From a virus (lineage: Duplodnaviria; Heunggongvirae; Uroviricota; Caudoviricetes): a stretch of 64,000 nucleotides of DNA. Below the pieces are notes generated by a model that was not told the DNA's origin, searched no databases, and saw only the letters and a list, made by a program, of their open reading frames with translations. The translations under genes were made by a program, and so were the position numbers. The stretch is taken from IMG/VR virus record IMGVR_UViG_3300033070_001565. One strand, given 5' to 3'. Below are positions 50,696 through 64,000 of the stretch, piece by piece; positions within the stretch are counted from its first letter, which is position 1, and each line of letters begins with the position of its first letter.

Positions 50696-51728
50696 ATTCA
50701 ACACCGGCTTCCACTTGTTCGAGATACCAAACTTTTGCGTATTTCTGCGCAGTCGAGATTGCGACTTTCTGATTGCAGCCCGATGCCTCGATCTCTGCTT
50801 GCGTTTCACGCTCGAGATCAGCCGCCAGCCACTTCATGAATGCACCGATATGTTTCATTGAGATTGAACCATCCGACGAGGCGGCTGCAGCTCCCTGCCT
50901 CAAGCGAGAAATCGTACACACGAGCTTTGCGTACTCATTTGCACCCTCTGTTTTTGTGGCATCGGCTTGAGCTGGTTTCGTATGAGCAACAACCTGATGC
51001 TCTTCACCTTTTGCCTTGAAGGCATAGGATTCGAAGTGCTCGTAATCGCTGAGAGTCGGATTGCACGGGTAGAACACGAGACCCTCTCCAATCCCAGAGA
51101 TCCCGTATGTCTCTTTCACCCAGGGATCGCACGCTTCGACGAGCTTCACTTGTTCATTGATCCAATCAATCTCTGATTGGAGATCTTCTGCTGGCGAGTC
51201 CCAACTGATATCGACCTCGCTTCCACCATCGTACCAGGGAAGAACATGAAGCTGCGGGCAGACTGCCTTGTACTGTGAGTGCTTCAGATAGAGCTCAATC
51301 TCACGTGGATCTTTGATGAAGATCTCGTGATTCCCCCTGTATAGTCTCATTGCAAAGACGGCAAAGATCTTGTGAGGAAGCTGAGATACTGCGACTCCAC
51401 GTTGAATCTTTGGACCTGCCCACTCGCCAAACACGATCAGCTTCTCATCACTGTGTAGAGAGTTCGATATCTCATTGAACGTGGCACGATTCTGCTCAAC
51501 CCACCCAGCAAAGCCCATGTTATCCACCGCAGGAGTGAGAATCGAATCTCGAGACTGCACCACAGGAGGCTTTCCATTCTCGAGCTGGATTGCTGCATTC
51601 GATCCATGCAACTTCACTTTTGCCATGTACCGCACGCAGACGGGAGGGAGCCACTCGGGATTCTTTTTCAAATCCCGCCTGAGCGTATGAAAGTTTCTGA
51701 TGGATGCCCAACGTACGTGATTTGCCAT
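50688..51728 (-). CDS. RNA ligase (Rnl2-like nucleotidyltransferase)
   Basis: Motif I AKVKLHGSN (KxHGxN), motif III IVFGEWAG, motif IV GEGLVFYP and motif V AFKAKG. Confidence 0.6.
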   Translation of the reverse strand: MANHVRWASIRNFHTLRRDLKKNPEWLPPVCVRYMAKVKLHGSNAAIQLENGKPPVVQSRDSILTPAVDNMGFAGWVEQNRATFNEISNSLHSDEKLIVFGEWAGPKIQRGVAVSQLPHKIFAVFAMRLYRGNHEIFIKDPREIELYLKHSQYKAVCPQLHVLPWYDGGSEVDISWDSPAEDLQSEIDWINEQVKLVEACDPWVKETYGISGIGEGLVFYPCNPTLSDYEHFESYAFKAKGEEHQVVAHTKPAQADATKTEGANEYAKLVCTISRLRQGAAAASSDGSISMKHIGAFMKWLAADLERETQAEIEASGCNQKVAISTAQKYAKVWYLEQVEAGVEYA

Positions 51729-51776: not shown

Positions 51777-51977
51777 ATGAAGATCGAAAGGATACCAGTG
51801 AAGGGACCCCTGTCAAAGGGAACGCTCGCTGGTGTGAGAGCAGAGGCTGCCGGCAAGCCGTACGACAGATTCGGTGTTGTTCTCAGTGTAGAGAACGGCA
51901 GACTGTTTTTGATAACTGCAGCAGGACCAACGTGGTGGCCCTGGCGTATGTCCTACGTGGCTCTTGGCATGTCATAG
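51777..51977 (+). CDS. small ORF, possibly related to the microgene family
   Basis: ATG ORF of 66 aa. IPVKGPL...VVLSVENGRLFLI...WWPW resembles the family. Confidence 0.2.
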   Translation: MKIERIPVKGPLSKGTLAGVRAEAAGKPYDRFGVVLSVENGRLFLITAAGPTWWPWRMSYVALGMS

Positions 51978-52144
51978 TGCCACCGCGCGTACCTTCTGAT
52001 TGAACTAGCAGCCATCCATTTAGAAAATTCGTTGAAATGGGCGTCAATCCTACGAGTACGTTCGCAGACTGCAATTGCAATATACAAGTAATACGAATCG
52101 TCAAGACTGTCTGCAAAAAGAGTTCCCGGTGTTACGGCTTCCAC
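51953..52144 (-). CDS. microgene array member (MET-PG...WKP family), most downstream copy
   Basis: GTG-EAVTPGTLF. The junction GTGGAAGCCGTAA is shared with the upstream copy. Confidence 0.4.
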   Translation of the reverse strand: MEAVTPGTLFADSLDDSYYLYIAIAVCERTRRIDAHFNEFSKWMAASSIRRYARWHYDMPRAT

Positions 52145-52317
52145 AATACCTCGCGATTCATGAGATCAGCTCTTTCAAAGAACAATCCCATGTGAACGTA
52201 TCCATCGTTATCAATGATATACGTCCCTCTTATACAGCATGACACGATGATTCTTATCTTATCTCGATCGATTTGAGCTCTGTACACGCAGCCTGGAATG
52301 AGATCAGCTCGTTTCAC
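52132..52317 (-). CDS. microgene array member
   Basis: MKRADLIPGCVY...IRIIVSC...VLWKP*. Confidence 0.5.
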   Translation of the reverse strand: MKRADLIPGCVYRAQIDRDKIRIIVSCCIRGTYIIDNDGYVHMGLFFERADLMNREVLWKP

Positions 52318-52321
52318 AGGA

Positions 52322-52519
52322 TTAAGTACATTTCCACAGAGTTACTCGTTTATAGGCGCCGTTAGAGTCTATCGAATCTGGCGTACGGACGATCTTGCCA
52401 GCGATAAACACGTAACGAGTTCCGATTAGAACAGATATTGAACTGAGCATTTCCTCGTAAAAGAAATCAGCTCTCAGAGATCCTGATACATCACACTCTC
52501 GCGAATCTGATCGACTCAT
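52322..52519 (-). CDS. microgene array member
   Basis: ...VSGSL...ISVLIG...TLWKCT*. Confidence 0.4.
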   Translation of the reverse strand: MSRSDSRECDVSGSLRADFFYEEMLSSISVLIGTRYVFIAGKIVRTPDSIDSNGAYKRVTLWKCT

Positions 52520-52742
52520 GAGTGTATCTCAAGTTTCTTTTTGCAATTTTTGATCGTGCTGTGAGAGTTTTGCCATTCACACCTCTACCTGGGTAGTACA
52601 AAACGATCTGCACTGTTATTTGCGGGTCAACGGTTGGCCATACTTGAACTCTCAGATCTCCTACGCCTGGAGCAATATCAATCGCCTCCTCTGTGTGGGT
52701 TTTGAGAATTTGTTTCATTTCCTGAATTGCGATTTTTCTCAT
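52491..52742 (-). CDS. microgene array member (diverged)
   Basis: IAPGVGDLRVQVW...ITVQIVLY. Confidence 0.3.
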   Translation of the reverse strand: MRKIAIQEMKQILKTHTEEAIDIAPGVGDLRVQVWPTVDPQITVQIVLYYPGRGVNGKTLTARSKIAKRNLRYTHESIRFARV

Positions 52743-52972
52743 GCCGGCTCGATGTAATAGCAGTGTGGAGTCCTACGACACACGAGATACATTTTTGTTT
52801 CGCATACGATTCCCGTTGAGACGAGATGTATCAATTCTTCATTGTGAATTGAAAGTGTCACGCCCATGTAATACCTGATGAATCTGTCCCCTGGGCGCAG
52901 CGACTTTTCCTTGCTTACGAGAAGCGATCCATTTGGAATCTTGTTTGCAGAGAGTTCGTCAATGATGAGCAT
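52739..52972 (-). CDS. microgene array member
   Basis: KIPNGSLLV...VTLSIHN, with an ATGA junction. Confidence 0.4.
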   Translation of the reverse strand: MLIIDELSANKIPNGSLLVSKEKSLRPGDRFIRYYMGVTLSIHNEELIHLVSTGIVCETKMYLVCRRTPHCYYIEPA

Positions 52973-53225
52973 TCTTTTTTGGGTTCCAGATGAGCTTGTG
53001 TTGTGCTACATAGTAGATTCTTACTGGCAAAAAAACATAATTTTCGATTGCGTGCTGAGACAGGGTACGAATTTCACCCTCTTTGAAATTTACGCCAATA
53101 ATCGCAGAAACACGTAGTGATCTAACATGTTTGCAAACAGAGAGCTGGCCTGGCTGCGGTGTCGGAGTCCATTTCGGACGATCCTGTCTTACAGCACGAT
53201 CAAGATCTTCTACAATATCTCTCAT
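52959..53225 (-). CDS. microgene array member
   Basis: PQPGQLSV...LRVSAIIGV...LIWNP plus an extension. Confidence 0.4.
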   Translation of the reverse strand: MRDIVEDLDRAVRQDRPKWTPTPQPGQLSVCKHVRSLRVSAIIGVNFKEGEIRTLSQHAIENYVFLPVRIYYVAQHKLIWNPKKNAHH

Positions 53226-53452
53226 ATCTTTGGAGCAAAGATAACACGTGGCAAGCAGAATTGAGTTTGAAGCATGCTACCAATCTTCACTTCTGTGCTT
53301 GCGAGCTCAACGAGTCCTCCTTGCACAGTGATCTCGAGTCTCACGGAGTTGGCTCCTTGCTTGTAACCAGGCAGAAACTGGAGAAGCGACCCTGGCAGTG
53401 ACATGTCATGCATCTGAGTCAGAAATGACAATTTGGTATTCATCATAGCCAC
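53222..53452 (-). CDS. microgene array member
   Basis: MSLPGSLLQF...VRLEITVQ, with an ATGA junction. Confidence 0.4.
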   Translation of the reverse strand: MAMMNTKLSFLTQMHDMSLPGSLLQFLPGYKQGANSVRLEITVQGGLVELASTEVKIGSMLQTQFCLPRVIFAPKI

Positions 53453-53545
53453 CTGATGTTAGCTGTTTTACTGATGCAATGTCGTCATCAAGATCTACGT
53501 GCCAGCCTACGAGAATGTAAACATTTGCTACACCGTTATCGTGCG

Positions 53546-53770
53546 TTAGCCAACCGATGGTACCCGGTAGCTTAACTTGCATGTGTACAATACATTGGCA
53601 TCGCGCGAGATAATTCTATTTCTCAGTCCGTCTGAAGTCAGAGTAATAGTGTGCGCTTGTACACACTCTACAATACTAGAACTGATGATAATGTGGAGCA
53701 GACGATTAGTACTGGCCGGATGATATGCGTAACGTCTTATATTTCCTGGATGCATGTAGCTATTTTCCAT
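53546..53770 (-). CDS. microgene array member
   Basis: MENSYMHPGNIRRYAY...LLHIIISSS. Confidence 0.45.
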   Translation of the reverse strand: MENSYMHPGNIRRYAYHPASTNRLLHIIISSSIVECVQAHTITLTSDGLRNRIISRDANVLYTCKLSYRVPSVG

Positions 53771-53993
53771 TTGTCAGTTCCTCGAGCGTTGTGATACCTT
53801 TCTTCCACATTGAATATGATATTGAAAATCCGACAACGCCATGAACGTTCTGCAGAACAGTGACCCAGAAATCTTTCTTTTTGTGACGTTTTATAGCTAT
53901 GCACAGCATTGGCATACAAGAGTTGTTGATCTTGTTATAGCGCATAGCAAGTCTTAGCTGTCCAGTTACAGGCCCACGATATTTTGTTTGCAT
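53760..53993 (-). CDS. microgene array member
   Basis: GPVTGQLRLAM...MLCIAI...SMWKKG. Confidence 0.35.
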   Translation of the reverse strand: MQTKYRGPVTGQLRLAMRYNKINNSCMPMLCIAIKRHKKKDFWVTVLQNVHGVVGFSISYSMWKKGITTLEELTNGK

Positions 53994-54172
53994 ATCAGAG
54001 CTTTATGTTCGTACCAGGGAATCGAGAGATTTACATTTTTTGCAACACCTTCGGCTGACAGCATGTAAGCATCGAAAGATGTCTGCGATTTCTGTTTGCA
54101 CGATATGATAATGAACGGATACTTCGTAACGATCGCATATAGGCAGCCAGACTCAATTTTCATGGGTGTCAT
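53966..54172 (-). CDS. microgene array member
   Basis: MKIESGCLYAIVTKYPFIIISC...IPWYE. Confidence 0.4.
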   Translation of the reverse strand: MTPMKIESGCLYAIVTKYPFIIISCKQKSQTSFDAYMLSAEGVAKNVNLSIPWYEHKALICKQNIVGL

Positions 54173-54587
54173 GATTGAGTCTCTCCTCGACGAGGCGTAG
54201 ATGCTCAGATGGGAATGTCACATGAACTACTTGCTTGAAATCATCGTGAACAAGCTTCCACCGCCAGGCTTTGCTCTTTCGTGTTCCAAATCCTTGCATC
54301 CAATCTTTGACACGATCGGAATCAGAGTCTCTCTTCACAAGCTTGAGAAATTTTTGTGCTGATCGTGAGTCGGAGAATACGATCCAGATCCTGTCTCGGC
54401 ACGCCAGCGGCACTCGATGCTTGTGACTCACTCCGCAGATTCCTCCGCAGCTTCCCTGACAAGAATTACGGGTCGCACATCCCAGTTCGTTTAGTAGAAC
54501 AATGAGCTTCGATATTTTCTTATCGACACTCACGATCTGGCCACCGAGAGCGATCTTGTCTTTTCTGTGACGCTTCAATTGCACCAT
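54153..54587 (-). CDS. array-embedded larger Cys-rich ORF (144 aa)
   Basis: LGGQIVSV...CATRNSCQGSCGGIC...WRWKL. The N-terminal junction is ATGGTGCAATTGA. Confidence 0.35.
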   Translation of the reverse strand: MVQLKRHRKDKIALGGQIVSVDKKISKLIVLLNELGCATRNSCQGSCGGICGVSHKHRVPLACRDRIWIVFSDSRSAQKFLKLVKRDSDSDRVKDWMQGFGTRKSKAWRWKLVHDDFKQVVHVTFPSEHLRLVEERLNHDTHEN

Positions 54588-54757
54588 ACTTCTTCGAATC
54601 CAGTGAAATGGTGAGAAAATTCGATAAATTTCGGACCAGCCATAATTCGAAGTTGTTTTCCGTATGCTATGCTGATCACGATTAGAATTTGACGTTTGTG
54701 ACCGTTGAGGCCGGCTGTCACTTCAATGTTTCCCGGGGCCGGCGAGATCTTATTCAC
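54575..54757 (-). CDS. microgene array member
   Basis: MNKISPAPGNIEV...ILIVISIA...EEVWCN*. Confidence 0.5.
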   Translation of the reverse strand: MNKISPAPGNIEVTAGLNGHKRQILIVISIAYGKQLRIMAGPKFIEFSHHFTGFEEVWCN

Positions 54758-54930
54758 GATTTTACTTCTATGTAATGTTGCTTACGGCACCACAAGTCAC
54801 TGCTAAATCCAGCAGACGAGAGTCCCTGAAATGTGTACAAATACTGATTTATTGAGAAATTCAAATGTTTCTCAGCTAGCGCGATTCTTACGCACGTAAA
54901 CGTTTCTCCTTCAACATTCCTGACATAGAA

Positions 54931-55167
54931 TCATAATTTCATATTACACCGAGTTGAGCCTGGTTGCACCAACGTACGGAGTGATCGGAATTCTCGTGTT
55001 TCCCACCAAGTGTTGTTGCTAAATTCGGTGGAACCAATCCATGAGATTGTGTGATCGGGAGAGTACTCTGACATTCGACTTTTTTTATGACTTGTTATCG
55101 TTGAAAGAGTAATGAAATACCTATTGCCGATTTCAACAAGGCACCCTGGTACAGGATCACAGTTCAT
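54931..55167 (-). CDS. microgene array member
   Basis: MNCDPVPGCLVEI...FITLSTI...ISWIGS plus an extension. ATGA overlap with the upstream copy. Confidence 0.45.
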   Translation of the reverse strand: MNCDPVPGCLVEIGNRYFITLSTITSHKKSRMSEYSPDHTISWIGSTEFSNNTWWETREFRSLRTLVQPGSTRCNMKL

Positions 55168-55349
55168 TGTGGACTCCACAGAACATCACGTGCAGAGTTA
55201 CGGTACCTGTCATCTAGTCTCGTGCAAGTACCATTTGAAAATATTACAAGGTTGAGATGATTTTTTCTATGAATCGTAATATACGTTTGAGTCGTCCACC
55301 GACTTTCGTAGTGTATGATCGAACCTGGCAGAATATTCGTGTCAGACAT
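55164..55349 (-). CDS. microgene array member
   Basis: MSDTNILPGSIIHY...YITIH...VLWSPQ*. Confidence 0.5.
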   Translation of the reverse strand: MSDTNILPGSIIHYESRWTTQTYITIHRKNHLNLVIFSNGTCTRLDDRYRNSARDVLWSPQ

Positions 55350-55352
55350 ATC

Positions 55353-55553
55353 TTATGTGATACTATATTTTTTCACAGTGTCGTGAAATAGCGTCGTACG
55401 TCGAATCGTACCTTCAGAATGAAGAAAGATAAATTTTTTTCTTTTGTAGCCAGTAACATCTTCGCAACTCAATACCACTGAGAGTTTAAGTTCGTTTCCG
55501 GAAAATTCATTGTATAGAGATCCAATCGTCCCTAGAGGAATAAACGTGACCAT
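55353..55553 (-). CDS. microgene array member
   Basis: MVTFIPLGTIGSLY...LKLSVVLSC. Confidence 0.4.
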   Translation of the reverse strand: MVTFIPLGTIGSLYNEFSGNELKLSVVLSCEDVTGYKRKKFIFLHSEGTIRRTTLFHDTVKKYSIT

Positions 55554-55741
55554 ATCAATTCCTTTCTCATGCTCAGATGTGGAAAATCTGAGAACGAGTT
55601 ATCAATCCCGTGTGGTGTAATGTATTTTGATTGTGAATCTGTTGATGATAGAACGATTGCAAGAATTTCGAACGATTCATCTCCGCTGATCGCGCCAGCA
55701 AAGCAGATCGAATCTTTCATCAGTGCGCCTGGACGATTCAT
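55532..55741 (-). CDS. microgene array member
   Basis: MNRPGALM...FEILAIVLSS...ELIWSR. Confidence 0.45.
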   Translation of the reverse strand: MNRPGALMKDSICFAGAISGDESFEILAIVLSSTDSQSKYITPHGIDNSFSDFPHLSMRKELIWSRLFL

Positions 55742-55944
55742 ACGAGAATTTTCACTCCGCTTACATCACCTTTTAGACTGATTCTTTCGAATTTGTGAGA
55801 TTGCAGAAAGTAAAAATATCTGTAATCAGGATTATCAGACGGCGTGATTGCAACCGTCAACCAAAGATTTGCTGTCATTCCTTTGGATCGAACGTTTGAT
55901 TTGAAGATTATCACGCATCCCAACCCGAGCCCAAGAACACTCAT
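55738..55944 (-). CDS. microgene array member
   Basis: LGLGCVIIF...LWLTVAIT, with an ATGA junction. Confidence 0.4.
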   Translation of the reverse strand: MSVLGLGLGCVIIFKSNVRSKGMTANLWLTVAITPSDNPDYRYFYFLQSHKFERISLKGDVSGVKILV

Positions 55945-56147
55945 GTTACAGAATGGCTTGCAAAGCAGTCAAATTCATCATCGTCCATTCGTGATACCCT
56001 TACACGATGATTTCCACCGATCGTAACGATTTCGTAAATCTTCTCATCTTCGAGATAGACGAATGAAAGCAAGATTCTCGAGTAACAAGGATTATCTTGT
56101 TTGATGTCTCGATATGTGTAAAGCCGGCCGATCGTTACATCGCTCAA
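55941..56147 (-). CDS. microgene array member
   Basis: MSDVTIGRLYTY...ILLSFVYL...IVTIGG, with an ATGA junction. Confidence 0.4.
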   Translation of the reverse strand: MSDVTIGRLYTYRDIKQDNPCYSRILLSFVYLEDEKIYEIVTIGGNHRVRVSRMDDDEFDCFASHSVT

Positions 56148-56410
56148 TAGAGAATCTTTCTTCCGCCTCGCGGTCCAACTGCGTACAGGGATGTAGCGTA
56201 ATTCTCGACTCCTCCCAATCTCAAAAGCTTCTCTAGAATTGTTTTCATAAACTCCCGTGCTTCCGGCTCGCTATCGAATGAGTACTCACGTACGTTTTCA
56301 TCAGCGTTTGGATCGAGCCAATCATCGTGGTACGTACCGTCTGTCATCATGTCTGCAAATTCATCACGATTCTGGTACACGCCGACAATATACGATTTTA
56401 CATTCTTCAC
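56144..56410 (-). CDS. array-embedded acidic ORF (non-family, 88 aa, GTG start)
   Basis: Rich in D and E, with no PG or WKP motif. ATGA overlap with the downstream member. Confidence 0.35.
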   Translation of the reverse strand: MKNVKSYIVGVYQNRDEFADMMTDGTYHDDWLDPNADENVREYSFDSEPEAREFMKTILEKLLRLGGVENYATSLYAVGPRGGRKILY

Positions 56411-56450
56411 TTTTGAATTGTACGCTTTCGTGACAGTGATTACACGTCAG

Positions 56451-56609
56451 TTACATCACAAGTTTCGTGAGTCTGTTGTTAGTTCTGAGGCATAGGAAGT
56501 ATCGCACGCCGCTAATGTTAACACAAGATAGAACGATTGCGCTGTAAGAAATCTCAGCATGATAGTCGATTTCAATGATTTTGCCGGGCTCCATCACTAC
56601 ACGCTCCAT
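56451..56609 (-). CDS. microgene array member (52 aa, below the ORF-track cutoff)
   Basis: My translation gives MERVVMEPGKIIEIDYHAEISYSAIVLSCVNISGVRYFLCLRTNNRLTKLVM*. The upstream 13-nt junction is ATGGAGCGTGTAG. Confidence 0.45.
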   Translation of the reverse strand: MERVVMEPGKIIEIDYHAEISYSAIVLSCVNISGVRYFLCLRTNNRLTKLVM

Positions 56610-56794
56610 GTACACATTTTTGTATACTCTCGTTGCAAATCAAGAATGACCCCGCGGGCTGAAACTTTAAAACAACGTTTCCATGATCTTGGAGATCTGT
56701 AATCATTCACAGATATGATGACGTCAACATACGAACGTTTCTGTTCCTTCGAGAATGTTGACACCAGAATTCCCTGCACTGTCAGAGCTTCCAT
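56597..56794 (-). CDS. microgene array member
   Basis: MEALTVQGILVS...YVDVIISV...CTWSV*. Confidence 0.45.
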   Translation of the reverse strand: MEALTVQGILVSTFSKEQKRSYVDVIISVNDYRSPRSWKRCFKVSARGVILDLQREYTKMCTWSV

Positions 56795-57000
56795 TCTGCT
56801 GTTATCCCAAAGGGAAGTTTGAATTCGTAGGCGCTCAGAGCAATCGCTCTCTTTTGCATTCCGTGGTACGAAATATACTTGTAGTATCTGAATCGCTCGT
56901 CTGAGTCAGCTGACAAAACGATTGACAGTGAGAGAAAATTGTCATGTTCCTCTCGTGCAAAAGACACGATCGAACCCGGGTTACTCAAGCAGGAATCCAC
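56782..57000 (-). CDS. microgene array member
   Basis: MDSCLSNPGSIVSF...LSLSIVLSA...AEWKL*. Confidence 0.5.
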   Translation of the reverse strand: MDSCLSNPGSIVSFAREEHDNFLSLSIVLSADSDERFRYYKYISYHGMQKRAIALSAYEFKLPFGITAEWKL

Positions 57001-57215
57001 CGTGCTTCTATCGCCGATAGTTCGAATGAGTCATGAGGAAGTTCGCTCGGCTCTGATACGCCCTCAGGAAATGCCACAGAGATAATATCAAATTTGTCGC
57101 AAAACTTTACAGACACTACAATTCGAATCTGAGCTGAATTATCATGTGGGAGCAAGTCATAGCTATAGATCATCCCAGGACAAGATAGCTTTCTTTCGAA
57201 GTTCACGGTTTCCAT
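56985..57215 (-). CDS. microgene array member
   Basis: METVNFERKLSCPGMIYSY...IRIVVSV...ARWIPA*. Confidence 0.5.
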   Translation of the reverse strand: METVNFERKLSCPGMIYSYDLLPHDNSAQIRIVVSVKFCDKFDIISVAFPEGVSEPSELPHDSFELSAIEARWIPA

Positions 57216-57418
57216 ATCACACGCTGTCCTTCTAGCGCTTCAGTACTCCATCTGGATTGACTCAGCCTATGTGGGCCCAAAAATGTGAATATCGAAACGT
57301 TCCCTCTGTATGTATCCCTATTTTTCTTGTTCTGCACGACAACGTAAATGTGTATTTGAGATGTACCTGAACAGTTCGCAGATGTGAAATTGCTTATGAA
57401 CACCGTGCCAGGATTCAT
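57203..57418 (-). CDS. microgene array member
   Basis: MNPGTVFISNF...IHIYVVVQ...RVIWKP*. Confidence 0.5.
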   Translation of the reverse strand: MNPGTVFISNFTSANCSGTSQIHIYVVVQNKKNRDTYRGNVSIFTFLGPHRLSQSRWSTEALEGQRVIWKP

Positions 57419-57624
57419 CTACGCTTCCACACAACGAGAGTTTCGTTGATATTCGGTATAACATTCAGTTCGCGTATTTCAGAGTCAGATCCAATCATAT
57501 ATGCACGGTTTTGTGCATCAACGCAGATTGACAACCATATCACCGGTGCATCTGGATAATGCGCATTCATCAGCATTCCAAACCACAACGTATTGTGTAC
57601 TTTTCCATCCATTCTGATCTCCAA
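57415..57624 (-). CDS. microgene array member (diverged, no PG)
   Basis: ...PVIWLSICV...LVVWKRR*. Confidence 0.4.
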   Translation of the reverse strand: MEIRMDGKVHNTLWFGMLMNAHYPDAPVIWLSICVDAQNRAYMIGSDSEIRELNVIPNINETLVVWKRR

Positions 57625-57767
57625 TGCTGAGATTTCGGTCTACCATCTGACTCAAGCGTTATCAATTTGTAATCGTACGAGATCAGATCAGATACTTGGA
57701 TCGATAGAATTATCGAAGGATATGTTCCGACGAATATGATCATCCCTGGACTTTGTTTGCACTCCAT
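57570..57767 (-). CDS. microgene array member (stop lost at the junction)
   Basis: MECKQSPGMIIFV...IILSIQV...HWRSEW, then reads into the next copy. Confidence 0.4.
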   Translation of the reverse strand: MECKQSPGMIIFVGTYPSIILSIQVSDLISYDYKLITLESDGRPKSQHWRSEWMEKYTIRCGLEC

Positions 57768-57913
57768 ATCAGAGATCTCTCTATTCTTGCATTTGAAATT
57801 TCGAAAGAAATCGATATTCCGCGCGTTTCGAGCATTCTGAGCTCCATGATTGTATCATTCATCACTGATTTTGCGCTGATGATGATTCCTCCGCAAGAGA
57901 GGCTTCCGATCAT
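57740..57913 (-). CDS. microgene array member
   Basis: (VEP)MIGSLSCGGIIISA...SLIWSAN. Confidence 0.45.
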   Translation of the reverse strand: MIGSLSCGGIIISAKSVMNDTIMELRMLETRGISISFEISNARIERSLIWSANKVQG

Positions 57914-58077
57914 GGGTTCCACACGCTTTTCGCTGATGCACCCTTACTCTTAAGCATCTTCTCAAATCCAATTTTGTTACGTGAAACTCCGGTCGACCAC
58001 CCTCCAGAAAGAAAAATGTTATCCGTACCGAGTCTGATTTGGAGTTTCATGAAGAAGCTCTGACTGATCATGATCAT
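57910..58077 (-). CDS. microgene array member (55 aa, missing from the ORF track)
   Basis: My translation gives MIMISQSFFMKLQIRLGTDNIFLSGGW...KSVWNP*. ATGA overlaps with both neighbours. Confidence 0.45.
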   Translation of the reverse strand: MIMISQSFFMKLQIRLGTDNIFLSGGWSTGVSRNKIGFEKMLKSKGASAKSVWNP

Positions 58078-58277
58078 TTCACCTGGCATGGTGACTCATC
58101 ATAGTATCGTATAATCTCATTTTCATGTATCTTTACGATAGAATCGTGATCAAGAATCATGCAATGCGACCCCATTCCTCCGAGGTCAATACGAGATATG
58201 ACGATCATGAGTCCGCGAGATATTGCGTTAACCCAACGTATCTGACCAGGAGCAGGCCGATTCAGTGACTTTTCCAT
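58074..58277 (-). CDS. microgene array member
   Basis: MEKSLNRPAPGQIRWV...LMIVISRI. Confidence 0.5.
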   Translation of the reverse strand: MEKSLNRPAPGQIRWVNAISRGLMIVISRIDLGGMGSHCMILDHDSIVKIHENEIIRYYDESPCQVK

Positions 58278-58430
58278 ACAGATTTCATTTGAATTTTAAT
58301 AAATTCACCTTGCACTGAGAAAATCTTTGATCCTGAGCCTATGACTGAATATTCCATTTTTGCTGCGATAGAACGAAATACATCATTGCAGAAGTTCCAA
58401 GGTAATCTTTGATGCAGATCAGATCTCCGC

Positions 58431-58637
58431 TCATTGACATTCTGAATTCCACACTTCTTCGAAGAACACGCTCATTGATAGATCAGAAAACCAGCCCAAC
58501 GACTTCCCGTTCAATACGACTTGAGTAATCGGACCATTTGAAATGTACTTTGCGATTACAATTCTGAAATCTTTTTTGTGATCGCCAGAAGCAATACTTC
58601 CGGGTGCATAGTTCACACTGTCCACACGACCTCCCAC
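58431..58637 (-). CDS. microgene array member
   Basis: MGGRVDSVNYAPGSIA...FRIVIAKY...EEVWNSECQ*. Confidence 0.5.
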   Translation of the reverse strand: MGGRVDSVNYAPGSIASGDHKKDFRIVIAKYISNGPITQVVLNGKSLGWFSDLSMSVFFEEVWNSECQ

Positions 58638-58843
58638 TTGTCCGTAACGTACGCTACTGAAATTCTCTTCTCAAATCCGTTTACCTGAAGAATTCCAACG
58701 TACGCTCGTTCGAATCTTGAGATGATAATGACAGGGTAACCGTAATCGCTTGAACTCATATCGAAGTGTGTTATGAGATCTCCCGGTTTGGGATCACTGC
58801 ACGTAGTCACTTGTCGTGCTCCAAAAAGTTTCATGTTTGGCAT
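58613..58843 (-). CDS. microgene array member
   Basis: KPGDLITHF...YPVIIISR...KWEVVWTV*. Confidence 0.45.
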   Translation of the reverse strand: MPNMKLFGARQVTTCSDPKPGDLITHFDMSSSDYGYPVIIISRFERAYVGILQVNGFEKRISVAYVTDKWEVVWTV

Positions 58844-58951
58844 CGATGAGCAACTCAGTTACAATTCTGTGAACTGTTTTCGATGTGAGTGTGTTTTCGG
58901 TCCGCATTGAGCGAGATCGAAATATAGAAAAGATTGCCAGTGTAATTCATA

Positions 58952-59176
58952 TCACCCGGGATGTGCTGAGGCTTCTTCAACTGACCACTCCAGCAGATTG
59001 TAACGAGAGTATATGGACCCTGTACCAACAGTCGTCCCTCGTACAGAGAGAATCATGTACTTGTTCTCGTATCGACCAAGTGCAATGTACAGTCTTTTAC
59101 CCACGCTGGTCTCAGTTGAGAGCACGATTCCGGGTATCACGCTGATGTATATACCGCTATTAGAATAGTCTGACAA
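58952..59176 (-). CDS. microgene array member (TTG/GTG start)
   Basis: VIPGIVLST...RLYIALG...LLEWSV. Confidence 0.4.
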   Translation of the reverse strand: MSDYSNSGIYISVIPGIVLSTETSVGKRLYIALGRYENKYMILSVRGTTVGTGSIYSRYNLLEWSVEEASAHPG

Positions 59177-59333
59177 TCTCGGCCCCCGCGCTTTTCATGT
59201 TCTCTCTCCAAGCAAAACTGTGCAAAAATATACCATTCGTATAAAGAAATTTATTTTCTCCAATGTGAATGTGAATCGTTCTGCTTGCTCTAATCTTTGT
59301 GTGCTCGAGTGTCCCAGGCTCGTCGTCTTGCAT
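59160..59333 (-). CDS. microgene array member (57 aa, missing from the ORF track)
   Basis: My translation gives MQDDEPGTLEH...TIHIHIGE...FAWREN...LF*. Confidence 0.4.
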   Translation of the reverse strand: MQDDEPGTLEHTKIRASRTIHIHIGENKFLYTNGIFLHSFAWRENMKSAGAEIVRLF

Positions 59334-59376
59334 GCTGATTCGATAAAATGTACGTTTTACTACCGTTGATTACACA

Positions 59377-59562
59377 TCATCGTGGCTGCCAAATCGCAAT
59401 TGCAGCAATTTTTTCTGTTAGCGATCGAGCGATGTGTCCGCGTTCGTGGAGACTCAGAAATGAACTGTCATTGCGCAAATACTGATTCGATAGTGCAACG
59501 TGCAAGATTCCTGATTCGAAAAATTTGAAAATCTGTCCTGGCGGGATTCTAATGGAGTCCAT
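59377..59562 (-). CDS. microgene array member
   Basis: MDSIRIPPGQIFKF...ILHVALS...AIWQPR*. Confidence 0.5.
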   Translation of the reverse strand: MDSIRIPPGQIFKFFESGILHVALSNQYLRNDSSFLSLHERGHIARSLTEKIAAIAIWQPR

Positions 59563-59744
59563 AGCGCTCCCTCACTAATCATGTAAGATTTTCTGAGATC
59601 TATTTTAGAGACGCCATCATATGAAATCAATCTCAGTGTGCTCCACTCTTTCTGCTCTGAATCTCGGCAAGATATCACCAGTCGTATTCGACAACCTGCG
59701 AATGAGAATGCGACTCCCGGTACGAATGACTTAACGGTTTCCAC
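59454..59744 (-). CDS. microgene array member with read-through (stop TGA to TTA)
   Basis: VETVKSFVPGVAFSF...IRLVISC...ALWTP-L, then an extension. Confidence 0.45.
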   Translation of the reverse strand: METVKSFVPGVAFSFAGCRIRLVISCRDSEQKEWSTLRLISYDGVSKIDLRKSYMISEGALWTPLESRQDRFSNFSNQESCTLHYRISICAMTVHF

Positions 59745-59944
59745 TGCACTCCTGCACCCGCGGCCGGCGCGTAATCGAACCCAATCCCGATGTCTTCGAT
59801 TCTGAATACAGACACAGAGAAAACACGATTCATGTTATTATTCTCGTCTCTGATGACCGCAAGAATCGCGTAAAGAGTACCGTGTTTTCTGAATGTGAAG
59901 ACTCCTCCTGGGACGAGATCAGCTTTCACTATTTGCATCTCCAC
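59675..59944 (-). CDS. microgene array member with read-through
   Basis: (VE)MQIVKADLVPGGVFTF...LYAILAV...VQWKP-L, then an extension. Confidence 0.45.
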   Translation of the reverse strand: MEMQIVKADLVPGGVFTFRKHGTLYAILAVIRDENNNMNRVFSVSVFRIEDIGIGFDYAPAAGAGVQWKPLSHSYRESHSHSQVVEYDW

Positions 59945-60180
59945 AAGAGATTTTCATTTTCATTTTCACTGTCATTGTCAGTAGAATCGTGTTTTACGTG
60001 CCATATCTTCATGCCAGTATACGAGATCATTGTCTTTTTGAGGAGATCATCCCACCGATCATGTACACGTACTGCTATTGATACGAATAGCGAGTCTCCG
60101 AGAGACACGATATCGCCTGGAATATGACGTACGTTAACGGAATCCAAGATATCTCTCCACTGTCTGAGAGTCGTCTCCAC
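59929..60180 (-). CDS. microgene array member (TTG start at the junction; N-terminally fused frame)
   Basis: ...LDSVNVRHIPGDIVSL...VSIAVRV...LLWRCK*. Confidence 0.4.
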   Translation of the reverse strand: METTLRQWRDILDSVNVRHIPGDIVSLGDSLFVSIAVRVHDRWDDLLKKTMISYTGMKIWHVKHDSTDNDSENENENLLWRCK

Positions 60181-60359
60181 AGTTTACGTGTTATTCCGTT
60201 AGACTGCAGACGTAGTACTGAATCTATCATTCTGTTCGGATCTCTTGTCGATATCCTGCAAGGAGATAGAGTGATGTAACAGCTGGTCACTCTACAATCG
60301 TGCGTGACAAAATAAATGCCACCGTGAATTGTGTCGAATCTATCGCTCATGGTGACCAT
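60075..60359 (-). CDS. microgene array member with read-through
   Basis: MVTMSDRFDTIHGGIYFV...EISWIP-L, then an extension. Confidence 0.45.
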   Translation of the reverse strand: MVTMSDRFDTIHGGIYFVTHDCRVTSCYITLSPCRISTRDPNRMIDSVLRLQSNGITRKLWRRLSDSGEISWIPLTYVIFQAISCLSETRYSYQ

Positions 60360-60538
60360 GAAACGTCATCATCGCAGATCATTCCCTCTTTTCCTTCGTA
60401 AACGCTACGATTGCTAATTCTCACGAAATTTTGCTCTCCACGTTGCGCTACGAGAATGTGTGCAGAGAACACGACGTCTCCGGCCAGCAAGAACCGAATT
60501 GTGCCAGATACTCTCTTGTGGTGCTTCAAGGTTTCCAT
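60347..60538 (-). CDS. microgene array member
   Basis: METLKHHKRVSGTIRF...VSWSP*. The junction ATGGAAACCTTGA was verified. Confidence 0.55.
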   Translation of the reverse strand: METLKHHKRVSGTIRFLLAGDVVFSAHILVAQRGEQNFVRISNRSVYEGKEGMICDDDVSWSP

Positions 60539-60717
60539 ATTGCTTGCGGTACTCTATTCGTCGTTATGCGTTTCTTGATACCACAGCTGTACAGCACGAG
60601 TACGATGTTGTTGCTCGCCAGCCCTGTGAACGCATCCAGAGATCTTCCGATAGATATCGAACACACTCCGTTTGCGTTTTCAAAAAGACACCCTGGAATC
60701 TTGTTAACGAGTTCCAT
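60526..60717 (-). CDS. microgene array member
   Basis: MELVNKIPGCLF...VCSISIG...AIWKP*. Confidence 0.55.
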   Translation of the reverse strand: MELVNKIPGCLFENANGVCSISIGRSLDAFTGLASNNIVLVLYSCGIKKRITTNRVPQAIWKP

Positions 60718-60902
60718 TTGTAGCGACTGATGTGCAATTTCTTTTGCATCTCTCTATCGTAGAACCCATGTACTGTACCGAAGCTCCACAATCTCATGCA
60801 ATGCGTGTACCCTTCCTCGATTCCACCAGATAGAAAAAGTACAACATATGGGTGATTCTCCCAAGTTACGAGTTCTCCAGGAGTAAGATCTGCGGATTCC
60901 AC
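60564..60902 (-). CDS. microgene array member with read-through
   Basis: MESADLTPGELVTW...YVVLFLSG...RYKWNS-L, then an extension. Confidence 0.45.
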   Translation of the reverse strand: MESADLTPGELVTWENHPYVVLFLSGGIEEGYTHCMRLWSFGTVHGFYDREMQKKLHISRYKWNSLTRFQGVFLKTQTECVRYLSEDLWMRSQGWRATTSYSCCTAVVSRNA

Positions 60903-61093
60903 ACGATATCCTTTTGCATCTCGTGATACACATAAGACTTTCGAACTCTAAGTTGCTCGCCAAGCCTAAAATGAGAGCCGACATACAGTGATTGTAGGTG
61001 ACCGTGACCGAATACGATGTAAAGCGCAGTTGATCGATCGTTTCTTCGGCCATAACTGTAAATGCTTCCTGATATCATCGTTACTGACTCCAT
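60866..61093 (-). CDS. microgene array member with read-through
   Basis: MESVTMISGSIYSY...ALYIVFG...IVWNP, then an extension. Confidence 0.45.
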   Translation of the reverse strand: MESVTMISGSIYSYGRRNDRSTALYIVFGHGHLQSLYVGSHFRLGEQLRVRKSYVYHEMQKDIVWNPQILLLENS

Positions 61094-61269
61094 TTGATGA
61101 AATTCTTCTCTTCAGACGCCCATATCATGTACAGATGCGCAGCTCTCGAATTTAGTGTGAGAGATGGTTTGCCCGATGAGACTCTCGAGATGATAACGTA
61201 AGGGTACGTTGAGCAATCAACAGTGAAGCCAGCGTGAGAAATCAAGCAACCAGGAGTAATGATCTCCAT
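61081..61269 (-). CDS. microgene array member
   Basis: MEIITPGCLISH...YVIISRV...IKWSQ*. Confidence 0.5.
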   Translation of the reverse strand: MEIITPGCLISHAGFTVDCSTYPYVIISRVSSGKPSLTLNSRAAHLYMIWASEEKNFIKWSQ

Positions 61270-61311
61270 TCGTTCTAATATCATCATACAAAATTTGTGA
61301 AATCTATACAA

Positions 61312-61494
61312 TCACGCGTGTGTCCATATCATTCCATCTTTGCTAGCCCATCTGAGACCACATACACCACTTTTCGTTAGTTGACGAACTGTCTGAGTGA
61401 ACTTTCCATATGAAACGAAGATCGGAATGTACACGAAGCAAGATCCGTTAAACTTTTTAACTGAATGAAGACACCCTGGCGTAACGGTTCCCAT
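61312..61494 (-). CDS. microgene array member
   Basis: MGTVTPGCLHSV...FVYIPIFV...MIWTHA*. Confidence 0.5.
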   Translation of the reverse strand: MGTVTPGCLHSVKKFNGSCFVYIPIFVSYGKFTQTVRQLTKSGVCGLRWASKDGMIWTHA

Positions 61495-61676
61495 TCGTTC
61501 ACCGCGTCGTCATCGTCCCACACTGATTCTTCTTGTATCGTACCATCAGAGAGCGTGAACAGCGCAGATGCAATACTGAGATGCGAAGATGATATCACGA
61601 CCCTTAGCCACAGTGTTCCTCTGGGCCGGTAGCAGACACCACTCAAGATCGCTCCTACTTTCACTGTGAGCTCCAT
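61377..61676 (-). CDS. microgene array member with read-through
   Basis: MELTVKVGAILSGVCY...LRVVISS...NEWEP-L, then an extension. Confidence 0.45.
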   Translation of the reverse strand: MELTVKVGAILSGVCYRPRGTLWLRVVISSSHLSIASALFTLSDGTIQEESVWDDDDAVNEWEPLRQGVFIQLKSLTDLASCTFRSSFHMESSLRQFVN

Positions 61677-61915
61677 ATTTCATCACCGTGGATGAGAACG
61701 CATATGTGAACCCCAGTATGATCGAGTTTGTATCTCAACTGAAATCTCATCGCTTCGTACACTTCATTTTTTACGTAAGAAATACAAATCTGTACGTGAG
61801 AAGAATTTTCGCCGAGTATTGAATACATGCATCCGGGAATTATCTTTTCCATAGTCTTATGTCGTACTTCGTAACCTTTCACCCGCCCGGGCTGGTACAT
61901 AAATTTGGTACCCAC
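61661..61915 (-). CDS. microgene array member (two N-terminal modules: MGTKFMYQPG and MEKIIPGCMY)
   Basis: ...VQICISYV...EIWSSQ*. Confidence 0.45.
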   Translation of the reverse strand: MGTKFMYQPGRVKGYEVRHKTMEKIIPGCMYSILGENSSHVQICISYVKNEVYEAMRFQLRYKLDHTGVHICVLIHGDEIWSSQ

Positions 61916-62252
61916 AGGACTGGATCGTCTTTGGGATCGAATCTGATGCAGTGACGATAACCCACCGATGTGATTCGATTCTCGGATTCAAAAGCAATCT
62001 GAATCGACATACGAACAATTCCGTTTTGATCTGTTCTCGGACGGATATTTCGGAGCGTGCCAGACGTAATTGCTGTTCCCAAAGTATCCACGGTTCAATC
62101 AGCTCCCTGTCCCATGATTCGATCTCGTTTACACCACGATGAGTGAGAATGGCTGTATTTTCTTTTTGCTTCCATGAGATTGTCACATTCACCGCAGCAG
62201 AACACTCCGTGAGTTCGAACGATACAAGCATACCTGGAGTTACGGTTTCCAT
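61857..62252 (-). CDS. microgene array member with long read-through
   Basis: METVTPGMLVSF...AAVNVTIS...PWILWEQQ, then an extension. Confidence 0.45.
   Translation of the reverse strand: METVTPGMLVSFELTECSAAVNVTISWKQKENTAILTHRGVNEIESWDRELIEPWILWEQQLRLARSEISVREQIKTELFVCRFRLLLNPRIESHRWVIVTASDSIPKTIQSCGYQIYVPARAGERLRSTT
61879..62091 (-). CDS. microgene array member (GTG start)
   Basis: VDTLGTAITSGTL...IVRMSIQIA...VLWVP, then an extension. Confidence 0.4.
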   Translation of the reverse strand: MDTLGTAITSGTLRNIRPRTDQNGIVRMSIQIAFESENRITSVGYRHCIRFDPKDDPVLWVPNLCTSPGG

Positions 62253-62422
62253 GCAATGATCTTTCCGTCGATCACCACGTAAGCATCGATTGTACCGATT
62301 CTGTATTTCGAAAGAGTCGTGACATCGTTAAACTGATGAGCATGTTTCAGCACAAAGCAGAGATGTCGCTTGCCTTGAAAGCTAGAGAAACATAGGAGAC
62401 TTCCGGGTGGAACTGGATTCAT
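62240..62422 (-). CDS. microgene array member
   Basis: MNPVPPGSLLCF...HLCFVLK...IIAWKP*. Confidence 0.55.
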   Translation of the reverse strand: MNPVPPGSLLCFSSFQGKRHLCFVLKHAHQFNDVTTLSKYRIGTIDAYVVIDGKIIAWKP

Positions 62423-62610
62423 GATCCCTTTGGACAGTACAAGATACACTCTTTGTAACCTTGCGTCCACGAGTGAAAACCGACAGAGCACAGTCTTACG
62501 GATACATTTTTTACAATGCTCTTGTGCTGTACAAGTATTGTTAGCTTTGCGCATTTATCGTGCTTGATGTTGACCCTTGCGATAATCGATCCTGGCAACA
62601 CACTTTTCAT
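62419..62610 (-). CDS. microgene array member
   Basis: (ME)MKSVLPGSIIAR...KLTILVQ. The ATGA overlap was verified at 62607-62610. Confidence 0.55.
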   Translation of the reverse strand: MKSVLPGSIIARVNIKHDKCAKLTILVQHKSIVKNVSVRLCSVGFHSWTQGYKECILYCPKGS

Positions 62611-62798
62611 TTCCATATAACTTTATCTCCTTTTGCAAATGTCCACGTGAAAATTCCAACCTGTGAGATTCCCACGTACCGAAACGTATTTTCACTCTCA
62701 CGTGAGATGTACAGTTCAACGTTGCTGATATTTGCTCTCAAATTAGAATTGTTGTACAGAGATATCAGCGAGCCTGAAAGGAATGCGTTATCACTCAT
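62607..62798 (-). CDS. microgene array member
   Basis: MSDNAFLSGSLISL...VELYISR...KVIWK*. Confidence 0.5.
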   Translation of the reverse strand: MSDNAFLSGSLISLYNNSNLRANISNVELYISRESENTFRYVGISQVGIFTWTFAKGDKVIWK

Positions 62799-62961
62799 CT
62801 TGAGCACTCCAAACGATTCGATCGCTATCACTGCAAATCCATGTACGAACTTGCCCCCGCACGAAGTATTTGTAGTCTCCGAGATACAATACGGGTACTT
62901 CGTGACTCATGAACCACGGACACACGAGAGCTCCTGACGTTGGAAATTTTACGGTTTCCAC
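62791..62961 (-). CDS. microgene array member (GTG start)
   Basis: VETVKFPTSGALVC...PVLYLGD...IVWSAQDE*. Confidence 0.45.
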   Translation of the reverse strand: METVKFPTSGALVCPWFMSHEVPVLYLGDYKYFVRGQVRTWICSDSDRIVWSAQDE

Positions 62962-62966
62962 ATGAC

Positions 62967-63131
62967 TCAATCGTTCTCCCACAGTATCCATTGTTCGATT
63001 CCCTCTGACGAAATACACGTAAATTTGAAGCGCTTCCCAGCTTTAAATTCTGAGAGATATATGCAAGCTTTTGCTTGATTTTCTATATCTGTGACTGCTT
63101 CGAACAGCATACCTGGTACGCAGCCTTTCAT
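62967..63131 (-). CDS. microgene array member
   Basis: MKGCVPGMLFEAV...ACIYLSE...WILWEND*. A remnant MWKP* follows immediately. Confidence 0.4.
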   Translation of the reverse strand: MKGCVPGMLFEAVTDIENQAKACIYLSEFKAGKRFKFTCISSEGIEQWILWEND

Positions 63132-63147
63132 CTGATGAGGTGCTATT

Positions 63148-63327
63148 TTAGCCACTCTGCGACCTCCATATGGCCCGTACGGGCATCTTTGATGACCAGA
63201 TGCCAACTCCTCCGACGCTAATGCACAGTGTACCAGAACTCAACCTGGGTGTCAGAAATATGAGCAGTTTTCCATTAAAATCAGCCCATACGGCCGGTGG
63301 AGAAATGGAAAAAAGACCTCCGATCAT
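63148..63327 (-). CDS. microgene array member
   Basis: MIGGLFSISPP...LLIFLTP...AIWRSQSG*, with an ATGA junction. Confidence 0.5.
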   Translation of the reverse strand: MIGGLFSISPPAVWADFNGKLLIFLTPRLSSGTLCISVGGVGIWSSKMPVRAIWRSQSG

Positions 63328-63551
63328 GGTTTCCACAGTGCACCTCTCATTCCAATCTGTCTGTGATGCCATGTGTAGCACCCATCCCAAGAGAGTCTCA
63401 AGTCTCCTCCCTCCCATCCTGAAAGTACAATCACGAGAAAGATCTTACCTATTCTTTCTTTTACGGGAGAAGAAGAAACGAGACACCCTGGAATATCGTA
63501 AACTGAACGGTTGTTCATCTTTATCTCCCCAGAGCAGACCAAGATCTCCAA
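63324..63551 (-). CDS. microgene array member
   Basis: ...SVYDIPGCLVSS...IFLVIVLS...ALWKP*. Confidence 0.5.
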   Translation of the reverse strand: MEILVCSGEIKMNNRSVYDIPGCLVSSSPVKERIGKIFLVIVLSGWEGGDLRLSWDGCYTWHHRQIGMRGALWKP

Positions 63552-63744
63552 TTGTCCTGTTGTACCATAGCTGCATACATCTTGTATGAAGTCTCAGATC
63601 GCCAATTATCTCGCTACCTGGAATACTCTTAGGACCAAGCACAATCGCTAGCACCGGTGCTCCTTGCGATTCGCTGTACCAAGAAATAGAGATCAGATTT
63701 CCAGGAATATCATACACAGACGGTCCGATCACGTGGCTCGCCAT
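63445..63744 (-). CDS. microgene array member with read-through
   Basis: MASHVIGPSVYDIPGNLISI...VLAIVLG...LLWG, then an extension. Confidence 0.4.
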   Translation of the reverse strand: MASHVIGPSVYDIPGNLISISWYSESQGAPVLAIVLGPKSIPGSEIIGDLRLHTRCMQLWYNRTIGDLGLLWGDKDEQPFSLRYSRVSRFFFSRKRKNR

Positions 63745-63926
63745 AGTACCCTCTCCAGAACGCTTTTCCCATAGATGTATGACACACCCTTTACTGAAAT
63801 CCTGTAATGTGCGTCAGATGCCCAGATGGGAGAAGATGAGATGACAACCGAGAGCTCGATCTTCTTTCTATTGCCTATATGTTTGAACTCAAGCAGTATC
63901 ACGCTTCCAGGAGTCATGTTTCCCAT
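63729..63926 (-). CDS. microgene array member
   Basis: MGNMTPGSVILLEF...ELSVVISS...VLWRAT*. Confidence 0.5.
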   Translation of the reverse strand: MGNMTPGSVILLEFKHIGNRKKIELSVVISSSPIWASDAHYRISVKGVSYIYGKSVLERVLWRAT

Positions 63927-64000
63927 ACGATCATCTGAGTTTTATCTGAAAATGTTCCTATTCCAACTCTTCTATACGTGAGCATGGTATGCTCGTACCA
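63914..64000 (-). CDS. microgene array member, 5'-partial (continues beyond the window)
   Basis: Open frame from the window edge. ...VGIGTF...MIVWET* with the junction ATGGGAAACATGA into the next copy. Confidence 0.35.
   Translation of the reverse strand, partial: WYEHTMLTYRRVGIGTFSDKTQMIVWET

Follow-up and report, generated by a model that had tools for sequence, protein, structure and literature searches.

The gene 'accordions' of poxviruses and the multigene family (MGF) arrays of African swine fever virus are tandem multigene families that evolve by birth and death. Here we describe an array of small genes in a virus of the Caudoviricetes, found in a stretch of 64,000 nucleotides (nt) from the IMG/VR record IMGVR_UViG_3300033070_001565; this whole stretch is referred to below as the window. 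Like the poxvirus and African swine fever virus arrays, it consists of diverged tandem paralogues at one locus, varies in copy number and holds occasional broken copies. Unlike them, it belongs to a bacterial virus, its genes are ~65 codons long and present in ~85 copies, and their ends overlap. At seven junctions between neighbouring genes the upstream stop codon has been replaced, and the upstream open reading frame (ORF) runs on into the next gene. We consider it likely that these stops were lost by point changes followed by 3' elongation into the next gene, that the loss recurs because of the way in which the junctions are built, and that the resulting C-terminal tails are functionless.

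Co-directional overlaps arise mostly by 3' elongation after disruption of a stop codon, and their length distribution can be explained without selection (Fonseca, Harris and Posada 2013, PMC3887535; PMC2268670). Most of the long co-directional overlaps that genome annotations contain are artefacts, and no real one longer than 60 bp was found among 715 by Palleja et al. (2008, PMC2478687). The overlaps in the array share with those formed by 3' elongation (PMC3887535; category iii of Palleja et al., PMC2478687; PMC2268670) a point change, an out-of-frame run-on into a co-directional neighbour and a length that fits chance. However, stop loss is repeated here at 7 of 15 neighbouring junctions, and, in contrast to the set of Palleja et al., six overlaps of 70-235 nt are reproducible and persist across lineages while their extra part looks functionless.

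Overlapping ends are also known from coupled NTGA gene pairs (Brown and Wade 2025, PMC12548453), with which the array shares a start codon placed within the end of the previous gene, a common strand and a lack of enrichment for internal promoters or terminators. In comparison, the overlap in the array has its mode at 13/16 nt, and termination-reinitiation at the canonical junctions is a reasonable guess. Because such coupling drops steeply with overlap and is gone by ~25 nt in tested systems (PMC12548453), the stop-less junctions, where termination occurs 70-235 nt past the next start and thus beyond the observed coupling range, would be uncoupled. A further comparison is programmed -1 frameshifting, for example in the phage tail assembly chaperone G/GT, which combines a conserved slippery heptamer with a conserved functional extension (reviewed in PMC5009743). 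As in G/GT, the product of a stop-less junction would carry a C-terminal part in another frame, overlapping the next gene; unlike in G/GT, the junctions have neither the slippery heptamer nor a conserved functional extension. The stop-less junctions are therefore a well-documented fresh instance of a known process, stop loss overlap, made recurrent by an unusual junction design in a novel orphan array.

Within the window, the array comprises 61 small genes arranged head to tail, 59 of which belong to a single orphan family of ~60-75 residues (typically ~65). At the N-terminus, family members share the motif M-E-x-V...P-G-x-[LIV]; they also have a hydrophobic strand ('IVIS') and, 2-4 residues before the end, a Trp that is nearly invariant. 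Structure prediction gives them a five-stranded, SH3-like small beta-barrel fold. A hidden Markov model (HMM) made from clear members matched only the minus strand of 51953..64000. Paralogues within the array are only ~20% identical; the array is therefore old. Tandem Repeats Finder reported nothing in it, the DNA of the copies having diverged too far. No family was assigned to the ten members compared with Pfam and PHROGs, and a word-indexed protein search together with a full HMMER search matched this phage lineage alone, apart from one spurious repeat protein (P0006); within 1.84 billion protein cluster representatives, the family is confined to this lineage. A related lineage (B, below) carries ~85 array genes over 17.6 kb (L002 71-17714), with 58 significant profile matches, all on the same strand. 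The ratio of nonsynonymous to synonymous divergence (dN/dS) in the genes' own frames is 0.19-0.25 (0.19 array-wide), and, as part of the explanation favoured here, the array genes are likely to be real, very small protein genes.

The junctions between these genes are unusual. Instead of showing the common overlaps of 4 or 1 nt, ~23 of the 60 junctions overlap by 13 or 16 nt, the modal class, and at each junction of this class the reading frame steps back by one; nearly all junctions place the downstream gene in frame -1 with respect to the upstream one. The junction at 62252..62240 is an example of the modal class: the upstream gene ends in TGG AAA CCG TAA (W-K-P-stop), and the downstream gene begins one base earlier with ATG GAA ACC GTA A (M-E-T-V). 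The next start codon thus takes its TG from the conserved C-terminal Trp codon of the upstream gene (N-TG-G). The stop of the upstream gene lies 10-13 nt further on; its first two bases are the last two of downstream codon 4, and its third is the first base of codon 5, such that GTA-A gives TAA and GTG-A gives TGA in the upstream frame. Codon 4 of the downstream gene usually encodes Val, Leu or Ile (NTN). Since its wobble base forms part of the stop, the upstream stop depends on the wobble base of the neighbour. At 4-nt NTGA junctions, in comparison, the start codon protects two of the three stop bases; the array has seven of these, all outside the 59454-62252 stretch.

Between 62252 and 59454, seven junctions have no stop at the canonical position, that is, at the fourth codon when the start-overlapping Trp codon is counted as the first. 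The altered codons (TTA five times, TGG once and CAG once) stand in register with the TAA or TGA of canonical junctions, and alignments with two related lineages are free of gaps at these places, which identifies the changes as substitutions and not indels. At five of the seven junctions codon 4 of the downstream gene is GTT or ATT (NTT), giving TTA, and the other two states are GCA and TTG-G. For the downstream gene, a change from GTA to GTT is synonymous. Taken 5' to 3' along the array, the seven overlaps span 235, 118, 37, 154, 73, 70 and 109 nt, and all are out of frame with the next gene. Whereas family members end 2-4 residues past the conserved Trp, six run-on ORFs have 19-70 extra codons.

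These six ORFs had been listed in an earlier note on this DNA, made from the sequence alone, and all of them exist on the minus strand. The length range it gave (94-131 amino acids, aa) holds for five, the ORF at 59675..59944 being 89 aa long. It had also ascribed the lost stops to point changes (TTA, TGG, CAG), which we confirm, although the positions it quoted mark the junction motif and lie ~5-10 nt from the altered codon; besides the five junctions it named, there are two further TTA junctions that it did not list separately (60707..60705 and 59552..59550). The tails do read the next copy in a different frame, as described there, but the overlaps extend over 23-78 codons (70-235 nt) and not 30-70. 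The GTG or TTG starts that it had noticed downstream are real at 62091, 60902, 60147, 59944 and 59744. Three of these vary between the lineages A (the window), B and C: at 62091, lineages A and B start with GTG and lineage C with ATG; at 60902, A has GTG, whereas both B and C have ATG; and at 60147 all three differ (TTG in A, GTG in B, ATG in C). GTG and TTG occur because each start takes its first base from the end of the codon that precedes Trp in the upstream gene, and this base toggles between lineages. Positions of the members concerned (M10 to M24) are collected in the table.

Table. Positions in the window of the array, a canonical junction, and the members and altered codons at or near the stop-less junctions
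Feature	Position	Strand	Description	Basis
Array	51953..64000	-	61 small head-to-tail genes; runs past the window end	gene tiling
Canonical junction (example)	62240..62252	-	ATGGAAACCGTAA, 13-nt overlap	sequence
M10	61857..62252	-	131 aa; core ends near 62077; ~70-codon tail covers the whole next gene out of frame	
Altered codon of M10	62079..62081	-	TGG at the canonical stop position	
M11	61879..62091	-	GTG start (62091); wholly overlapped by the M10 tail	
M13	61377..61676	-	99 aa; core ends at W-E-P; 35-codon tail	
Altered codon of M13	61482..61484	-	TTA in place of the stop, equal to M14 codon 4 (GTT) plus the next A	
M14	61312..61494	-	ATG start; 5' part under the M13 tail	
M16	60866..61093	-	75 aa; 8-codon tail; CAG at the stop position (60892..60890); 37-nt overlap (60866..60902)	
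M17	60564..60902	-	112 aa; GTG start; 48-codon tail; TTA at 60707..60705	
M18	60526..60717	-	under the M17 tail; own end canonical (W-K-P-TGA)	
M20	60075..60359	-	94 aa; 20-codon tail; TTA at 60137..60135	
M21	59929..60147	-	TTG start (60147); not a separate gene in lineage C	
M22	59675..59944	-	89 aa; GTG start (59944); 19-codon tail; TTA at 59734..59732	
M23	59454..59744	-	96 aa; GTG start (59744); 32-codon tail; TTA at 59552..59550	
M24	59377..59562	-	under the M23 tail; own stop TGA kept in the window lineage	

The stop-less junctions are genuine and old. Over 13,475 bases, every junction included, the window matches an independent Logan contig (L001, SRR32380197) with 100% identity, and two further contigs (L011 and L012, from SRR32380195 and JGI 3300020576) are 99.9% identical to it over the part that they cover. 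Lineage B, ~96% identical to the window, reads the same in four assemblies (two Logan, two JGI), and lineage C, ~82% identical, was recovered in five Logan assemblies. Both likewise have no stop at the canonical position at all seven junctions; the stop-less junctions therefore predate a split of ~18% nucleotide divergence. The longest DNA repeat in the array has ~29 imperfect bases, so mis-assembly is not expected.

Selection on the tails was measured between A and C1 over 203 tail codons lying beyond the first five codons of the overlapped gene, a comparison that the earlier note had proposed as a check for purifying selection on the extension frames. The tail frame holds 77 nonsynonymous and 19 synonymous differences (dN/dS 1.25), a nonsynonymous fraction of 0.80 compared with 0.77 expected under neutrality (p = 0.55). 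The same bases read in the frame of the overlapped gene hold 43.5 nonsynonymous and 57.5 synonymous differences (dN/dS 0.18, p = 3e-12). In the +1 frames of gene cores, which serve as non-coding controls, dN/dS is 1.05 and 1.14. The clearest single case of a tail without selection over a constrained gene is M13/M14, with 12 nonsynonymous and 0 synonymous differences in the tail frame versus 1 and 11 in the frame of M14. Similarly, M11 has a dN/dS of 0.33 in its own frame and the M10 tail frame over it one of 0.97. Cores of the tail-bearing genes are intact in all three lineages and have dN/dS values of 0.06-0.37, similar to those of their neighbours. Indels between lineages measure 3, 3, 6, 9 and 12 nt in coding parts, and 1 and 4 nt in spacers. 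By these comparisons, the tails evolve like non-coding frames, with purifying selection detected in one of the two frames and not in both, and the tail-bearing and the overlapped genes are both still under purifying selection.

Tail lengths are consistent with this. Four of the six long tails differ in length between A and C: in the order A/B/C, the proteins measure 131/131/89 aa for M10, 112/112/101 for M17 and 94/94/85 for M20, and M22 has 89 aa in A versus 75 in C. The 8-codon tail of M16 is equally long in all lineages. In the tail-relevant frame of family genes, stop density is 0.051 per codon, which corresponds to a mean run of ~20 codons. 'Virtual' tails, obtained by skipping the junction stop in 41 canonical genes, have a median of 22 and a maximum of 112 codons; the median of all 18 open runs is 20 codons (p = 0.72), and the seven actual tails are not significantly longer than the 41 virtual ones (one-sided Mann-Whitney p = 0.087).

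These observations suggest a simple course of events. Drift of codon 4, for example from GTA to GTT (ATT, GCA and TTG-G also occur), would remove the upstream stop, and the upstream gene would then be read in the +1 frame to the first chance stop, on average ~20 codons further on, which would leave a meaningless C-terminal tail on the core domain. The tails are presumably tolerated since they are appended to the end of what is predicted to be a small beta-barrel. At a stop-less junction, termination-reinitiation coupling would be lost, and the next gene would need its own initiation. Recurrence at seven of 15 junctions follows from a stop that is built from the wobble base of the next gene. 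On this view, the tails result incidentally from the overlap of gene ends and do not serve to produce fusion proteins.

Some findings weigh against this explanation. M13 (99 aa) and M23 (96 aa) do not vary in length among the three lineages, and A and C agree at 28 of 32 residues of the M23 tail. Neighbouring cores outside the overlaps have a synonymous divergence of 0.52, compared with 0.40 in the overlapped parts (p = 0.025), although the latter equals the array-wide value of 0.40 (p = 1); an extra constraint on the overlapped parts may exist but would be weak. In addition, long overlaps are clustered, occurring at 7 of 15 junctions in this 3-kb stretch compared with 3 of 45 elsewhere (Fisher p = 0.0013), which neutral drift alone does not predict. 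The clustering arises partly because the NTGA junctions, with their protected stops, all lie elsewhere; common descent of a GTT-bearing unit by duplication is another possible cause. Finally, we infer translation of the tails, and of the array itself, from sequence evolution only.

The constant lengths, the lower local synonymous divergence and the clustering speak for some or all tails being overprinted C-terminal extensions that function under selection, with the overlapped bases coding twice. We regard such dual coding as improbable: the pooled dN/dS of the tail frames resembles that of non-coding control frames, most of the tails vary in length between lineages with lengths that fit chance, and, as weak evidence, the M10 tail is predicted to be unfolded (predicted local distance difference test, pLDDT, <40) within a 131-aa model of low overall confidence. 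In the M23/M24 overlap both frames have equally low divergence, which a recently exchanged or generally conserved tract explains equally well. Slightly more credible, yet still unlikely, is that tail-bearing members and their downstream neighbours are becoming pseudogenes, stop loss breaking the coupling and marking copies in decay; the earlier note had likewise proposed the ongoing pseudogenisation of a young array. Decay is real in the array (one split and one truncated member, and in lineage C a premature stop and a lost start), whole members have been gained or lost between lineages, and overlaps longer than ~25 nt abolish coupling in tested systems (PMC12548453). However, this decay is located elsewhere in the array, and the age implied by the divergence of the paralogues does not suit a young one. 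The cores of tail-bearing and overlapped genes have been under purifying selection over ~18% divergence, indels in these genes are in-frame, and the stop-less state persists in three lineages.

Designed recoding fares worse. Stop suppression, one of the suggestions in the earlier note, can be set aside, as the stop is absent from the canonical position and none is left to suppress. A programmed -1 frameshift that fuses an upstream barrel to the downstream one, with two- or poly-domain products, would agree with the -1 relation between neighbouring frames at nearly all junctions, with the conserved junction sequence TGGAAACC and with two chance heptamers inside tails (CCCAAAG at 61935 and AAATTTT at 59526). 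We nevertheless hold it to be very improbable. No X XXY YYZ slippery heptamer stands at any junction (15 in-frame heptamers are scattered over the 61 genes), a scan against Rfam matched no relevant RNA element, and the extension is in the wrong frame and evolves without constraint. The protein ends W-K-P and M-E-T-V are both conserved and are encoded in shared bases, which accounts for the conservation of the junctions, and in lineage C a 4-nt indel disrupts the in-frame relation of the neighbours 61312/61269. An error in sequencing or in assembling a repetitive region, also raised before, has a negligible chance of being the cause. Nothing was found in its favour; the codons were altered by substitutions rather than homopolymer indels, other assemblies give the identical sequence, the junctions are kept in two more lineages and nine assemblies, and the array is not repetitive at the DNA level. 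A broader speculation, which we would give about the same small chance as dual coding, is that the ~85 orphan beta-barrel proteins are binders that form a diversifying library, e.g. for host takeover or counter-defence, with junctions that serve translational chaining and the gain and loss of cassettes, and with the stop-less junctions as deliberate breakpoints or emerging overprinting. If so, the tails of at least M13 and M23, both constant in length, would extend these proteins by a new functional peptide or, in the breakpoint version, the coupled chain would be divided into separately regulated blocks.

Stop loss with chance elongation, the explanation that we prefer, has consequences for annotation. 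The ORFs of 89-131 aa need to be read as ~60-70-aa family members with accidental tails, neither as fusions or two-domain proteins nor as errors, and the small genes beneath the tails should still be called. Long co-directional overlaps of this kind are usually dismissed as artefacts (PMC2478687); here, a built-in overlap of 13/16 nt ties the stop codon to the wobble base of the neighbour, and long overlaps recur and persist unselected. The whole array, with ~85 orphan beta-barrel genes in 17 kb, is a more interesting object than its stop-less junctions. Promoter- and terminator-like sites in it are at or below chance; it is therefore probably one long transcript, in which a Shine-Dalgarno-like 4-mer core precedes 20 of 59 starts.

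The window itself looks like part of a large uncultivated phage genome and includes genes for a DnaE-type polymerase, GroEL, helicases and an RNA ligase. A megablast of the array against isolate phages gave no match, searches with the polymerase and GroEL found relatives of at most 40% identity and thus no close relative among isolate phages, the GroEL protein had no exact counterpart on record, and a literature search for similar phage arrays found nothing useful. An alternative genetic code was considered and dropped; under code 11, long genes, DnaE and GroEL among them, are uninterrupted, and each of the three stop codons is used to end genes of the array. Beside the RNA ligase, a 347-aa ORF (49766-50809, minus strand) with no Pfam match resembles a PHROG annotated as transposase (phrog_10081, E = 7e-15). 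The array also contains two non-family genes on the minus strand, of 144 aa (54153-54587) and 88 aa (56144-56410), for which no database family scored above threshold; the former, which lineage C lacks, has a family-type junction at its start, with ATGG over the upstream Trp.

Relic junction codons persist in places where the upstream gene now ends earlier, such as TGG AAA AGA TAA at 61851 and V-M-W-K-P-stop at 62966..62949, just past the stop now in use (62969..62967). Two neighbour pairs share a frame with a single stop between them (61269-61314, TGA at 61314..61312; 55349-55355, TAA at 55355..55353). In-frame readthrough between these members (pairs 61312/61269 and 55353/55349) was considered and rejected, as the frame relation of the first pair is broken by the 4-nt indel in lineage C. 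The stop of M24 (TGA, 59377-59379) is TTA in lineage C, where an 80-aa protein (P0005) reads into the spacer; this loss is lineage-specific and recent, and stop loss is therefore still going on.

Broken copies occur among other members. Relative to B and C, a 1-nt deletion in an A-run (~58362) splits a 63-aa member into 58452..58339 (37 aa) and 58357..58262 (31 aa), which reflects either a true frameshift pseudogene or a homopolymer error. An 8-nt deletion, equal to one copy of the direct repeat ACTCACAT, truncates 58980..58855 to 41 aa, compared with 64 aa in lineage B. The split member at 58452..58262 and the truncated one classify as pseudogenes, whereas the tail-bearing members do not. In lineage C, one member has a premature stop and another has no start.

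Gain, loss and exchange of members are seen as well, and the array evolves by birth and death. Lineage B has an extra member (beginning METVTPGTLLALKDPHG; L002 7040-7267) between the gene that ends at 62240 and the one that starts at 62252, with a METVTPG junction at its start as in its neighbour and with its own stop also replaced (CAG TTA); it suggests gain or loss of whole units by recombination at junctions. Lineage C is without ~209 nt at 59920-60128, which fuses the N-terminus of 60147..59929 to the body of 59944..59675 and leaves one hybrid gene where A and B have two. In the same lineage, the member 61852..61661 (region 61661-61870) is replaced by an unrelated longer sequence (~293 versus 188 nt) between flanks that align. 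Divergence between A and B is mosaic (60930-61018 and elsewhere in 59300-62300), with long identical tracts and patches that differ at a third of positions or more, which suggests recombination or gene conversion. Copy number also differs beyond the window end, where the head of the array is ~1.1 kb shorter in the window lineage than in B (L011 854-2742 versus L002 605-3660).

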